Origin: Terricaulis sp.
GTDB taxonomy: Bacteria > Pseudomonadota > Alphaproteobacteria > Caulobacterales > Aquidulcibacteraceae
Reading direction: 5' to 3' (one strand)
Length of the DNA stretch: 64,000 bases
Assembly (NCBI RefSeq): GCF_034439495.1
Contig: NZ_JAWXAM010000045.1
The notes below the pieces were generated by a model that was given only the letters and a program-made list of their open reading frames with translations, made no database searches and had not been told where the DNA came from. Below are positions 10,036-14,849 of the stretch, piece by piece; position 1 is the stretch's first letter; every line of letters begins with the position of its first letter. Position numbers and translations under genes: made by a program.

Positions 10036-10968
10036 ATGGACCCGCGCCTCCTAAAACCCGCCGCGCCGACTGACCCGCGCACGCAAGTGCGCCAGGCGCA
10101 TCTGATGCTGACCGGCAAGCTCCCGTCGTTTGGCAACGAAGCGATCAAACTGGTGGAAGCCGCGTGTGCGCAGAAATCAGCTGAAGCTCTGCTATACCAC
10201 GCAGCGCTCGCCGCGCGTGGGCACGGCCGCGCGCAAAACTTCGATCACGCGTTCAGATATGTGCAGGAGGCTGCGGCTCTGGGCGATACCCGCGCTAAGG
10301 GCCAGCTCATGGCCCTGGAAAACAAATTCGACCGGCAAGCATGGCTCACGCCTGTCGCTTTGCAGCAGCATCACGCCGCGCCGCGTGTGTTCACGGTGGA
10401 GAAATTCATCTCCAAGCCGGTGTGCAATTGGCTGATGAAGCAGGCGCGCAAGAACCTTCAGCGCGCCACTGTGCAACTCGCGGCCAAAAGCGGCGCCGCC
10501 GCGGTCGACAACGCCCGTTCCAATTCAGTGGCGGGCTCGCATCCGCTACAACCGGACTTGGTGATGCAGCTGGTGAACCAGAAGATCGCCGCCACGATCG
10601 GTGTGCCCGTGGCGCATCAGGAAACCACCAACATTCTGCACTATGCACGTGGCGAGCAATACATCCCGCACTTCGACTTTTTCACCGAGGCGGAAGAGGC
10701 GGGCTTCGCGCACGAGATGCGCACCATTGGCCAGCGCATTTGCACCTTTCTGATCTATCTCAACGATGGCTATGAGGGCGGTGAGACGAACTTCCCGCGC
10801 CTCGATTGGCGCTTCAAGGGCAAGCCTGGCGATGCGTTGATCTTCTGGAATCTCTCTGCTGACGGCCAGCGCGAGCTGCTTTCGCTGCATGCCGGCCTGC
10901 CGGTGACGAAGGGGGAGAAGTGGCTCTTGTCGAAATGGGTGCGCCAGCGCCCTGTGCCCGTGGCTTAG
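10036..10968 (+). CDS. Sel1-like repeat + prolyl-4-hydroxylase-like 2OG-Fe(II) oxygenase (copy 3)
   Basis: YIPHFDF, LHAG, KWLLSKW; same architecture as copies 1 and 2. Confidence 0.85.
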   Translation: MDPRLLKPAAPTDPRTQVRQAHLMLTGKLPSFGNEAIKLVEAACAQKSAEALLYHAALAARGHGRAQNFDHAFRYVQEAAALGDTRAKGQLMALENKFDRQAWLTPVALQQHHAAPRVFTVEKFISKPVCNWLMKQARKNLQRATVQLAAKSGAAAVDNARSNSVAGSHPLQPDLVMQLVNQKIAATIGVPVAHQETTNILHYARGEQYIPHFDFFTEAEEAGFAHEMRTIGQRICTFLIYLNDGYEGGETNFPRLDWRFKGKPGDALIFWNLSADGQRELLSLHAGLPVTKGEKWLLSKWVRQRPVPVA

Positions 10969-11032: not shown

Positions 11033-12280
11033 ATGTCTCAGCCCAAAGTCAAGAAGGTCGTGCTCGCCTATTCCGGCGGCCTCGACACCTCCATCATCCT
11101 GAAATGGCTGGAGGAGACGTATGGCTGCGAGGTCGTCACCTTTACGGCTGATCTCGGCCAGGGCGAAGAGCTCGCGCCCGCGCGCGAGAAAGCGCTGAAG
11201 ATGGGCGTGAAGCCGGATAACATCTTCATCGACGATCTGCGCGAAGAGTTCGTGCGCGACTTCGTCTTCCCGATGTTCCGCGCCAATACTTTGTACGAAG
11301 GCCAGTATCTGCTCGGCACTTCGATCGCGCGGCCGCTGATCGCCAAGCGCCAGATCGAGATCGCCAACATGGTCGGCGCCGACGCGGTGTGCCACGGCGC
11401 GACCGGCAAGGGCAATGACCAGGTCCGTTTCGAAGTCAGCTACTACGCGCTGAAGCCGGACGTGAGAGTGATCGCGCCGTGGCGCGAGTGGAGCTTCGAG
11501 GGCCGCCCCGATCTCATCGCCTACGCCAAGAAGCACGGCATCCAGATCGCGCAAGGCAAAGAGCAAGTCGCGCCGTTTTCGATCGACGCGAACCTGCTGC
11601 ACACGTCGAGCGAGGGCCTCGCGCTCGAAGATCCCGACGTCGAAGTGCCGGAGATTGTCACCAAGCGCGGCGACCGCCGCACCATCACGCCGGAAGAGGC
11701 GCCCGATCAGGCCGAGACGGTCACGCTCAGTTTCGAGCGCGGCGATCTCGTCGCCATCAACGGCAAGCCTATGAAGGCGCACGAGCTGCTCGCGGAGTTG
11801 AATCGGCTCGGCTCCAAGCACGGCATCGGCGGCCTCGATCTGGTCGAGAACCGCTATGTCGGCATGAAGTCGCGCGGCTTCTACGAAACGCCGGGCGGCA
11901 CGATCCTTTGGTACGGCCACCGCGCCATAGAGAGCATCACGCTCGATCGCGGCGCCATGCATCTGAAGGACGAGCTGATGCCGCGCTATGCGAGCATCAT
12001 CTATAACGGCTTCTGGTGGACGCCCGAGCGGCTAATGCTGCAAGCCGCGATCGACGCCAGCCAAGGCAGCGTCACTGGTGATGTGAAGCTGAAGCTCTAC
12101 AAAGGTGGCGTCCGCACCGTGGGCCGCTCATCGCCATACTCGCTCTACTCAAAAGCCCTGGTCGGCTTCGACGAAGCCGGCGGCTACAACCAGGCCGACG
12201 CCGAAGGCTTCATCAAACTCAACGCATTGCGCCTGCGAATTTTGGCGGAGCGCGATAAGAAGCGCGGGAAGAACGAGTAG
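11033..12280 (+). CDS. argG: Argininosuccinate synthase
   Basis: [27 protein letters not shown] and [10 protein letters not shown] motifs. Confidence 0.98.
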
Positions 12281-12283
12281 CGC

Positions 12284-12769
12284 TCAAGCCCGCGTAAACT
12301 CCATCCACCAATTCACTTCCCACGTCGCGCCGCCGTCAGCCGAGAACGCTTGCTCCCAGCGTGCTGAGTTCGCGGTGATCTCGGACCACTGGAAATAGAC
12401 GCGGATAGCGCGACCGTTGAAGGTGTCGTCGGCCTCGAAGCGGCCGACACCGTCGTGGAAACCGCCGCGGACCGGCGGTTCGAGCGAATTGCTGCGTTCG
12501 TCGAACCACCAGATCGACCACAGGCGGGTCTCCGGATTGAAGACGCGCACCGCCATGGCGCGGTAGGCGCCGGCGGGCAGGTCGAGCCAATTGTCGTCCA
12601 TGTTGCCGAAGCCATTGAGCGTCGGGACCATCGTGCACGCGCCGTCGAACTCGTCCCACTCAGTTGAGCCGACTAGGCGCTCCTTCAAGCGATGATGGCG
12701 GACGTTCCAGCTCCCGATCAGCCAATCCCAATCGTGACGGTGGCGTTCGAGATCTTCGGCTTCTGACAT
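12284..12769 (-). CDS. DUF1579 domain protein
   Basis: HDWDWLIGSWNVRHHRL and ARWEQAFSADGGATWEVNW pattern. Confidence 0.8.
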   Translation of the reverse strand: MSEAEDLERHRHDWDWLIGSWNVRHHRLKERLVGSTEWDEFDGACTMVPTLNGFGNMDDNWLDLPAGAYRAMAVRVFNPETRLWSIWWFDERSNSLEPPVRGGFHDGVGRFEADDTFNGRAIRVYFQWSEITANSARWEQAFSADGGATWEVNWWMEFTRA

Positions 12770-12982
12770 AGGCGCGCTCCTGCTCTACGAGGTTCATATG
12801 CACGCATACCTGCCAGCGTGTGTCAGGTATTAGAGAGCGCTCTAAATGATCGCGGAATCAGGGCGTGGATTTTCGCCCTCTATCCCACACCATCGCCAGC
12901 AAAAACCCAGAGCAATCAAGCACCAGCGCAAAACGTATCCTACAGCGCAAAACCTGAGCGATACTCACCTTATCCTTCACAC

Positions 12983-13302
12983 GGGAGGTCTCGTTGCTAG
13001 CCGAGCATCCAGACGTGAATGACGCGATCGAGCGTGATGCTGATGTCAGCCAGCCAGCGTGCTGGCGATGCTGATGTCGGCTGAAGCCCGCGGGAGAAGC
13101 AGCGTAAGGCGCCAACCGCGGGAGGATACCGGGCTTTACAGGCAAAAGTCCGCACGCGGTCGGGGACCTATCCAGGGGAGTGAAAAACCTCCCTGTGACG
13201 GCCCGATCGAAAACGCATCGCGACAGGGCGCGTGGTTTGCGCATAGCCAGTCGTAAGACTGGATGACTATCTACTCGGCGCACTCCACGCGCCCTGCCTC
13301 CC
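12983..13302 (+). ncRNA. Candidate large structured non-coding RNA (~320 nt), family unassigned
   Basis: Terminal pairing GGGAGG/CCTCCC, 12-bp perfect helix 13224-13235/13285-13296, CCAGTC-GTAA-GACTGG hairpin, 9-bp helix 13082-13090/13130-13138; TATCCT -10-like hexamer 6 nt upstream; no credible ORF. Confidence 0.6.
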
Positions 13303-13346
13303 GAACGCGCCGCGCGCGGTCCGGCCGCAGGCGCTCTTTCTTATTT

Positions 13347-14849
13347 CTATCGGGAAGGCTCGCCGGCGGGCAGGCGCGATTGCGCTTCTTCCAGCATGCC
13401 GCGCGCTACTTCGGCATTGCCGCCGCCGTGTGGATCGAACGCCACTGCGCGCAGCATTGGAATGGCCTCGGCATGGCGGTCATTCGCCATCAGCGCGTAC
13501 GCGGCATTGATGCTGATTTCGTCGATTTGCGGCGCCAACTGGTTCGCCAGCATCAGCACGTTGAGATAATTCTCCAGCGCGGGCCGATCCATCATCACGC
13601 CGTCAAAGGACTGCGCGTAGCGATAGAGCGAAGGGACATGGTTTGGATTGCGCTGGTAAGCGCGGCCGAACAGTCGCCGTGCTTGGCTCTGAAGCGTTCG
13701 CTCTGCGTCACCCTCGGCTTCTTCCGCGTCCGTGAGATAGGAGAGCCCGCTGAGGTAGAGCGCCTCTACGTCGTCGGGATTTGACTCGATGAGGGGGGCG
13801 AGGACAGCGCGCGCCTGTTCGGTTTCGCCAAGACGGATCTCCGCAAAAGCGCGCGTTAGGCTGGAGAACCGATCGCTTTGGCCTTCAGTGAGTGAGCGCA
13901 CCCGTGAAAGCACTTCAGTGCGCGAGGCATCGCCGACGCCGTAGCGAATGCTGGTGTAGAGCGGCAAGAGATTGTTGGCGCTCACCGGTAAGCGCGTGAC
14001 TTGCACGCGCGAAAGATCAACCTGCGCGGGTCGGTTCAGCGCCAGCGCGTTAGGCGAGCCGCGATAGTAGCGGCGCAATTCGGATAAAAATTCCGCGGGC
14101 GTTACGCCAAAGCCGGATTGGAACGCCGAAACCGGATCTTGGCCCAGCCGCAGCGCGCGCATATAGGCGTGAAATTGCTCCATCTTGCCGGGTGTCAGCA
14201 CCAGGTAGTGCGTCATCAGCCAGCTCTGTGCGTAGAACAAATTAGCTTCGCGCGGGTCGCGGAGTTCAAACGGGGAAACCGTGATCAGCCGCTCGATCGG
14301 CATCCAGGTCTCGTTGCGCAGCGCATAGAAGCGCCCTTCGCTGCTTCGCCCGAGCACAATTCGGTCCGTGCCGAGTTGCGCCGTGGACATAAATTCCGCG
14401 AAGCCCTCAACGTACCAAGCTGGATACGCATTGGCGAAATGCTGAAACATGAAATGGTGAGCGTACTCATGGAAGAGAACATCGCGATTGCTGAGGCCGC
14501 CGTCGCGGTAAATGGCGAACGCAGCGATCTGATCGACGCGGGCGGCATAAAGGCCGGCGATTGAATCGCGCATGTTTGGAAAAGTTTGGCGAAACTCGTC
14601 TTCGGAAAAGAGATAGACTTCGAGCTTCGTTGGCGAGCGTTCACCCGTGGCTTCCGTCATCCGCCGCAGCAGCGCGTCGAACGTCTCGAGTTCGTTGGCC
14701 AGGCCGCGTATGGCGCGATCTGGAACCGCGCCGTGGACAATAAAACCCTCAGTTTCGGCGCGGAGCCAGCGTCCGTCCTGCGCTGCGACGGACGTCGCGA
14801 ACGCAGCGAGGAGGCTGAGCGAAACCAAGAAAGAAATGAAATGCCGCAT
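13347..14849 (-). CDS. Secreted HEXXH zinc-peptidase-like (DUF1570-like) protein with C-terminal TPR-like repeats
   Basis: Signal peptide; VLFHEYAH...PAWYVEGFAEF; helical repeats such as NPDDVEALYLSG. Confidence 0.7.
   Translation of the reverse strand: MRHFISFLVSLSLLAAFATSVAAQDGRWLRAETEGFIVHGAVPDRAIRGLANELETFDALLRRMTEATGERSPTKLEVYLFSEDEFRQTFPNMRDSIAGLYAARVDQIAAFAIYRDGGLSNRDVLFHEYAHHFMFQHFANAYPAWYVEGFAEFMSTAQLGTDRIVLGRSSEGRFYALRNETWMPIERLITVSPFELRDPREANLFYAQSWLMTHYLVLTPGKMEQFHAYMRALRLGQDPVSAFQSGFGVTPAEFLSELRRYYRGSPNALALNRPAQVDLSRVQVTRLPVSANNLLPLYTSIRYGVGDASRTEVLSRVRSLTEGQSDRFSSLTRAFAEIRLGETEQARAVLAPLIESNPDDVEALYLSGLSYLTDAEEAEGDAERTLQSQARRLFGRAYQRNPNHVPSLYRYAQSFDGVMMDRPALENYLNVLMLANQLAPQIDEISINAAYALMANDRHAEAIPMLRAVAFDPHGGGNAEVARGMLEEAQSRLPAGEPSR

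Follow-up and report, generated by a model that had tools for sequence, protein, structure and literature searches.

Large bacterial RNAs with complex folds and no known job are rare, and work on several of them has been rewarding: RNase P and group II introns turned out to be ribozymes. ROOL, GOLLD, OLE and raiA are large ornate RNAs of unknown function (PMC12286853, PMC12968392), and the first three form RNA-only complexes (PMC12286853). The locus considered here occupies positions 12983-13302 on the + strand of a 64,000-nucleotide (nt) stretch of Terricaulis sp. DNA (contig NZ_JAWXAM010000045.1), the whole of which is called the window below. It is a stand-alone RNA gene body of ~320 nt, or ~330-370 nt with a short leader and terminator, and very likely represents a real, new, trans-acting family of structured RNA genes. 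The novelty is at the level of an RNA family or class. Like the ornate RNAs, the family is stand-alone and non-coding, several hundred nt long and apparently abundant in transcriptomes, with covarying helices, multi-way junctions, GNRA loops and blocks of invariant nucleotides. Unlike them, it is alphaproteobacterial and exists as 5-8 chromosomal paralogs with a common dedicated promoter box; it is shorter than GOLLD, ROOL and OLE, shows no association with phage and has no covariance-model similarity to any of them. A likeness to GOLLD, put forward as an impression in an initial annotation of the locus, is not supported on these grounds; the RNA is about half the size of GOLLD, its family members being 320-400 nt long and GOLLD and ROOL ~580-800 nt.

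The same annotation had read the interval as a structured non-coding RNA on the + strand, and all the strings it quoted were verified in place. The reading is borne out by folding, by covariation and by wobble usage. The minimum free energy (MFE) of the + strand is -158 kcal/mol, whereas dinucleotide shuffles give -124.9 +/- 5.6 (z -5.93; 0 of 100 shuffles equal it). The - strand of 12983-13302 folds too (z -4.50). In the proposed pairs of the family alignment, G.U or U.G occupies 86 cells and A.C or C.A only 3, and pairing is 98.4% canonical as + strand RNA versus 92.2% as - strand RNA; since G.U far exceeds A.C, the + strand is the RNA strand.

The consensus structure was obtained with RNAalifold on full-length members, using a MAFFT alignment and a hand-curated one. 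MAFFT shifts paralog types C and D by one column at the closing helix P1, and gaps were curated by hand for P1, P2 and P12; the tool-based covariation counts are drawn only from helices left untouched by hand. With 15 members aligned by MAFFT, pairing holds in 98.8% of 1120 cells versus 33-48% when partners are slid, 17 pairs have changed on both sides with pairing kept (a count reached by 0 of 500 shuffles), and the covariation score is 0.116 versus 0.009-0.036 slid. In the curated alignment 30 of 119 pairs have double changes that preserve pairing, and canonical pairs make up 92-100% of each helix. Compensatory changes in homologues, proposed beforehand as a check, are therefore present at 17-30 pairs, and together with the strand-specific G.U usage they go beyond the controls in the manner generic to structured functional RNAs. 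The consensus has 13 helices, all on the + strand:

12983-88 with 13297-302, +: P1, closing helix; GGGAGG/CCTCCC becomes GAGAGG/CCTCTC, a G-C to A-U switch in type C; 95% canonical
12995-98 with 13004-07, +: P2, hairpin UGCU-AGCCG-AGCA; pentaloop invariant, fourth pair U-A in types A and B, G-C in type D
13023-30 with 13214-22, +: P3, long-range; 3 of 8 pairs altered on both sides
13032-36 with 13153-57, +: P4, long-range; invariant
13039-81, +: P5, variable arm; in type A 12 base pairs (bp; 13039-50 with 13070-81) and a cap GCCAG-CGUG-CUGGC at 13053-66
13087-13122, +: P6/P6a, hairpin holding the invariant AGCAGCGUAAGGCGC; G-U wobble changes only
13130-52, +: P7, hairpin CGGGCUUU...AAAGUCCG; three pairs altered on both sides
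13158-64 with 13202-08, +: P8; two pairs altered on both sides
13167-13201, +: P9; invariant except for G.U/A-U, register of the core hairpin ambiguous
13224-35 with 13285-96, +: P10, 12 bp, CAGGGCGCGTGG/CCACGCGCCCTG; one A-U pair becomes G-C
13239-42 with 13278-81, +: P11, in the 3' domain
13247-62, +: P12, CCAGTC-GTAA-GACTGG; 10 of 11 pairs altered on both sides, loop always GNRA

P3 and P4 organise a multi-helix junction that bears P5, P6/6a and P7. Types B-D have, in place of this P5 arm, a branched domain of ~115 nt that shows 9 double-change pairs of its own. GNRA tetraloops occur in every paralog. The arm P8-P9 (~50 nt, 13158-13208, GGGGACCUAUCCAGGAGAGUGAAAAACCUCCCCGUGACGGCCCG) is nearly invariant, as is the P9 core, GGGGACCUAUCCAGGRGAGUGAAAAACCUCCCYGUGACGGCCCG. 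Filled in on the window sequence, the consensus structure has -149.6 kcal/mol as compared with the MFE of -158 kcal/mol.

Several of these helices had been drawn earlier from the single sequence. The closing helix, the 12-bp helix P10, the GNRA hairpin P12 and the GCCAG-CGTG-CTGGC hairpin capping P5 are each upheld by the homologues. The core hairpin at 13173-95 is supported likewise, its register remaining ambiguous. A helix between TGAAGCCCG and CGGGCTTTA is not supported, for GAAGCCCG is invariant and its partner varies without compensation and forms the covarying local hairpin P7. The alternative fold through CATCCA/TGGATG exists in type A only. A pseudoknot between GCCGAG (13000-05) and CUCGGC (13274-79) stays a candidate: its sides are nearly invariant and show no covariation, type C has an uncompensated mismatch, the pairing overlaps P2 and P11, and at most GCCG/CGGC is universal. 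Likenesses of P7 to the P4 strands of RNase P and of P6 to domain IV of the signal recognition particle (SRP) RNA were considered and dropped, there being no model match and the positions covarying freely.

The claim that the RNA contains no plausible open reading frame (ORF) holds in substance and not to the letter. Mechanical ORFs of 141 amino acids (aa) on the - strand and 65 aa on the + strand do exist; neither has a Pfam match, and no ORF conservation was found across paralog types, a 1-nt indel separating types A and B. A conserved small ORF starting at a GUG in the core (VKNLPVTAR...) was also considered and rejected: its Shine-Dalgarno-to-start spacing is 1 nt, the A/B indel breaks its frame, and the similarity follows helix P10.

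Homologues were sought in genome and metagenome collections with the core CCTATCCARGRGAGTGAAAA, position 13177 being degenerate. The metagenome-assembled genome (MAG) LNEK01 (Alphaproteobacteria bacterium Ga0077535) has 5 copies on 4 contigs, so at least 5 in this MAG, and a second MAG in the genome collections has one partial copy. Metagenome contigs gave 12 true matches, 5 of them duplicating loci from the MAG scan, and sample Ga0163144 has copies on 6 large contigs, with at least 7 copies in one metagenome sample. Two further metagenome matches (loci L019 and L027) were set aside as chance, reading as a ribosome-binding site plus start codon. Genomes of a Terricaulis-related lineage of Caulobacterales (Alphaproteobacteria) carry 5-8 dispersed paralogs each, which overturns the initial description of the RNA as an orphan. 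A covariance model of the central domain recovers all copies and makes no further match in the window or in the other examined loci. The 15 members analysed are 320-400 nt long and fall into 4-5 paralog types:

type A, 320 nt: the window copy plus its orthologues L003 and L015
types B, C and D, 392-398 nt: copies with the larger P5 domain
type E: partial
a further variant, with a 26-nt P5 hairpin: soil and freshwater metatranscriptomes

In the last of these a GCGGAC-N8-GUCCGC hairpin stands in place of the 113-nt P5 domain (L018, 2108-2222; RNA runs X31 and X35).

Assembly behaviour also reflects the repetition. Metagenome contig depth is ~50x in the flanks, 500-1350x over 13127-13219 and ~330x over 12941-13002, the core P8-P9 segment reaching up to ~25x the depth of the flanks; the high-depth segments are borne on many short contigs that diverge on either side. 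Independent short-read (Logan) contigs of the neighbouring gene end at one base, 13172-13174 (L002, L004-L006). The breaks inside the RNA arise from repetition of its conserved core within the genome or community, and the family is probably under-sampled as a result. Families of this kind are liable to systematic truncation or loss in MAGs and to under-representation in MAG-based catalogues.

Orthologous copies are syntenic in two genomes. Between L016 and L029 identity is 99.6% over the RNA and 94-95% in the flanks, and this better conservation points to selection on the RNA. The copy at the window locus is present in L003 and L015, the neighbour protein being 95% identical in L003. By its ArgG protein the window groups with MAGs labelled Terricaulis sp., Hyphomonadaceae and Caulobacteraceae.

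Homology among paralogs begins ~105 nt upstream of P1 and stops exactly at its last base, and the shared unit of type A-C paralogs starts by the distal of two boxes, at CTCTATCC. The elements of the candidate transcription unit in the window are as follows:

12881..12889, +: distal box TATCCCACA; types A-C have it 54-55 bp upstream of the proximal box, type D lacks it
12936..12944, +: proximal box TATCCTACA, situated where a -35 element would be
12960..12965, +: -10-like hexamer GATACT, reading CATAAT in type C and TATACT in type D; spaced 15 nt from the proximal box and 17 nt from P1
12983..13302, +: RNA body, type A paralog, 320 nt from the first to the last base of P1
13303..13345, +: GC-rich hairpin, then UCUUUCUUAUUUCU; putatively terminator-like, on the + strand only

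In all four types, every full-length copy carries the TATCCNACA box (TATCC[ACT][AC]CA) exactly 47 nt upstream of P1. The 64-kb window has this box at two places only, each of them at this RNA, against an expectation of 0.12 occurrences; elsewhere in ~295 kb examined it is found at one conserved coding-gene site and one stray site only. The hexamer is a presumptive -10 element by its position. The hairpin at 13303..13345 has -18.5 kcal/mol, which is not significant versus shuffles, and every paralog has some hairpin directly 3' of P1. From the conserved boxes, the -10-like hexamer and the 3' hairpin with its U-tract, the RNA very probably has its own transcription unit, in agreement with the independent transcription initially proposed for it.

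Two observations belong beside these elements. In several type B copies (L014, ~2623-2716; L018 and L025 after P1) a long hairpin follows at once, with a perfect 15-17-bp stem around 55-85 nt; examples are GGGGATCGGTTATCGGG...CCCGATAACCGATCCCC and, in L013 (- strand, ~830-943), CCGTCATCCTGGGGC...GCCCCAGGATGACGG. Such a hairpin may act as a terminator of unusual length or form an additional 3' domain. The boxes CTATCCCACA and GTATCCTACA (12881-89 and 12936-44) and the core CCUAUCCAGG (13168-13174) have the pentamer TATCC in common. The TATCCNACA boxes may also resemble the DnaA box TTATCCACA, a 1-nt insertion being needed for the match.

RsmX/Y/Z and CsrB/C are similarly dispersed paralogous RNA genes, each behind the same conserved upstream element, and on this comparison the common upstream element of the paralogs points to one regulator and a dosage-type output. 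Unlike the Csr/Rsm RNAs, the family has no reiterated GGA loop motif (its loops are AGCCG, CGUG, GUAAG, ACAGGCA, GAAAA and GNRA, with no motif reiterated) and consists of one complex fold with one invariant arm. To our knowledge most Alphaproteobacteria lack CsrA.

Transcripts are in evidence from environmental samples. Family 31-mers were detected in over 20 RNA libraries, sampled from soil, sediment, freshwater, wetland, compost, wastewater and biofilm, including libraries as small as 31-44 Mb. In the eight RNA libraries examined, contigs cover the RNA body and the flanking genes are at zero depth.

Comparison with known families gave no match. Rfam 15 (4227 models) at gathering thresholds has no match over the RNA in the whole-window scan or in the paralog loci, and with permissive filters (E<=10, all paralog types) returned only microRNA, small nucleolar RNA and ROSE noise far below threshold. 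The models that failed include GOLLD, ROOL, OLE, HEARO and raiA, which had been named for checking, as well as RNase P, SRP, 6S, transfer-messenger RNA (tmRNA), group I and II introns and riboswitches. ARAGORN reports only 4 tRNAs in the window and no tmRNA, and the marks of the two-piece alphaproteobacterial tmRNA are lacking; the earlier statement that the RNA is unlike RNase P, SRP, tmRNA and group I/II introns thus stands. No match was obtained by blastn against phage and plasmid records, nor when 2.9 million viral contigs were scanned with two invariant blocks. The family adds a well-supported new alphaproteobacterial fold with unusual genetics, namely paralogs with a precisely placed promoter box, and the common box gives an experimental handle on the timing of RNA production.

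As to what the RNA does, the pattern of conservation suggests a mechanism. All paralogs may belong to a single regulon, controlled by one DNA-binding factor or sigma factor that binds the box. The RNA would act in trans, and its functional surface would be the invariant P8-P9 arm plus the P6a hairpin; most likely this surface would serve as a specific protein-binding platform, either as the scaffold of a ribonucleoprotein or as a sequestering RNA. The remaining helices would hold the functional arm in shape, and gene copies would set dosage. A specific protein-binding or scaffold role is the most likely single role and is put forward tentatively; taken together, the family and such a role form the best explanation, one we favour with some reservation. 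6S RNA offers a parallel, being abundant, trans-acting, structured and thought to bind a protein of the transcription machinery, the TATCC shared by core and boxes being an observation only. Unlike 6S RNA, the family is multicopy, has no rod with a central bubble and has no 6S model match.

Several points weigh against this picture. The transcript evidence is unstranded, of low depth and at contig level. Because some contigs from RNA libraries take in 57-92 nt of the conserved sequence upstream, the boxes may belong to a longer primary transcript and not to a promoter, and a consensus scan called no sigma-70 promoter and no terminator. The sequence diversity amounts to about five independent lineages, and the covariation statistics, clear as they are, come from few events. 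Only two GTDB species representatives carry the family, and syntenic sites are empty in relatives whose neighbour proteins are 83-90% identical: the RNA was not found in the syntenic DUF1579 gap of relatives at 83-86% identity, at seven loci around argG in relatives whose ArgG is >=90% identical and whose gene order differs, or at the type B site upstream of purH in relatives at 83-89% identity. Missing from these sites, the family is lineage-restricted, which weakens a broadly essential role. Finally, the protein-binding mechanism is a proposal drawn from the conservation pattern.

Among other explanations, an intrinsic activity of the RNA itself, be it catalysis, RNA-only assembly or decoy mimicry, would make the family a new multigene class of tertiary-structured RNA; we consider this unlikely. 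As a decoy, the RNA would use its invariant CCUAUCCAGG arm to mimic the TATCC promoter box, titrating the factor that drives transcription of the family. The narrower proposal of an RNA-only machine, a ribozyme or a self-assembling homo-oligomer like ROOL, GOLLD and OLE, draws on the multi-way junctions, the GNRA tetraloops in every paralog, the invariant internal loops of P9, a candidate tertiary pairing of the AGCCG loop with CGGC and the peripheral arm of variable length, features typical of large tertiary-structured RNAs. No cleavage-site signature, known ribozyme motif or palindromic kissing-dimer loop was seen, however, and such a machine is quite unlikely.

Base-pairing regulation is less likely again, and distinctly doubtful. 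The pairing would be made by the invariant GAGUGAAAAAC loop, the CA-rich 5' leader or a 19-nt segment complementary to argG. Multicopy small RNAs (sRNAs) with a common promoter box are a known riboregulator pattern, which this family shares, and RNA positions 13023-13041 are perfectly complementary to argG mRNA positions 11933-11951 (19 nt, E 7e-4), a match that is 19/19 in both orthologous loci. Yet the 19-mer is buried in the 5' strands of helices P3 and P4, the sequence on the argG side codes for a conserved peptide (ESITLDRG), and relatives that lack the RNA still have 16 of the 19 nt; the complementarity may be due to chance or may mark an antisense target. Complements of the apical loop are not enriched in the window (2 sites including the RNA's own locus, 0.49 expected, 11 of 100 shuffles reaching 2), and size and fold far exceed those of typical sRNAs.

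There is very little to recommend a guide-RNA-like scaffold serving a nuclease or recombinase encoded elsewhere, in which the sequence following P1 would be the guide. Like HEARO and the IscB/TnpB omega RNAs, the family is ornate, multicopy and of a comparable size (~300 nt), and the unit ends sharply at the last base of P1, to be followed by sequence that is unrelated from copy to copy. Unlike them, it has no IscB or TnpB gene beside it at the examined loci; no reverse transcriptase, transposase, TnpB/IscB or integrase lies next to 11 loci, and HEARO has no match at E<=10. Each copy moreover has its own promoter-like region and a hairpin after P1, and positions are fixed and syntenic in two genomes. 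The msr-msd RNA of a retron is likewise not indicated, no reverse transcriptase domain being found among the neighbours.

It is just as improbable that the family has been described already and was missed. Literature coverage was incomplete, subscription journals lying outside the search, and Rfam lags behind publications; on the other side stand the lack of any Rfam 15 match at E<=10 for any paralog type and the fact that no paper containing the invariant core was found in that search.

A DNA-level repeat whose structure merely follows from palindromes, such as a repetitive extragenic palindrome (REP), a miniature inverted-repeat transposable element (MITE) or a non-autonomous insertion sequence, is more improbable still. 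The copies are dispersed and intergenic, missing at syntenic sites of relatives, sometimes in rearranged loci, and prone to break short-read assemblies, all as expected of such repeats. Against this, a strand-specific excess of 86:3 for G.U would be meaningless for duplex DNA, long-range helices covary, the family is present in RNA libraries, and neither terminal inverted repeats, target-site duplications nor a conserved target was found at unit boundaries and at filled and empty sites.

The RNA locus sits in a 577-nt gap (12770-13346), both bordering genes of which are on the - strand:

12284-12769, -: DUF1579-like gene, 161 aa
13347-14849, -: TPR gene, 500 aa, convergent with the RNA

A cis-acting leader or riboswitch for the DUF1579 gene, read on the - strand, has next to no likelihood: the region does lie upstream of that gene on a strand that folds well (z -4.5), but G.U pairs become C.A mismatches there (92.2% versus 98.4% canonical), which already contradicts it, paralogs adjoin unrelated genes in either orientation, and DUF1579 orthologues of relatives lack the element. 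On the + strand the downstream gene is convergent, and 11 copies adjoin unrelated housekeeping genes (among them argG, purH, sdhA, ribonucleotide reductase, transporters and hydrolases), so the RNA is not the leader of a flanking gene, as had been concluded at the outset.

Some minor features of the surrounding regions may be recorded. At the purH locus, comparison of filled and empty sites did not bear out a clean insertion and instead shows a rearranged region with a gene remnant. In L013 (- strand, ~1520-1750) the C-terminal end of a hydrolase-like gene (...IYPGFSHGMATVNAETINADLLAFIKS*) seems to survive ahead of a strong hairpin; this remnant sits between a heparinase-like gene and the RNA, and is missing from the empty site L040. 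The TPR gene beside the RNA in the window (13347-14849) is missing in the closest relative, L003. More distant relatives (L031-L037) have the order argG-TPR-DUF1579-PRC, and the window has argG-DUF1579-RNA-TPR-PRC; from this difference in gene order the RNA would lie at a rearrangement junction. Just upstream of the DUF1579 gene start, at 12806-12830, is a near-perfect palindrome, ATACCTGCCAGCGTGTGTCAGGTAT, whose arms TACCTGACA...TGTCAGGTA are kept in relatives without the RNA; it looks like a possible operator of that gene. Ahead of argG, 2-3 tandem paralogous 2OG-Fe(II) oxygenase genes are present in all relatives (window ~10036-10968 and upstream; L003, L008, L031).

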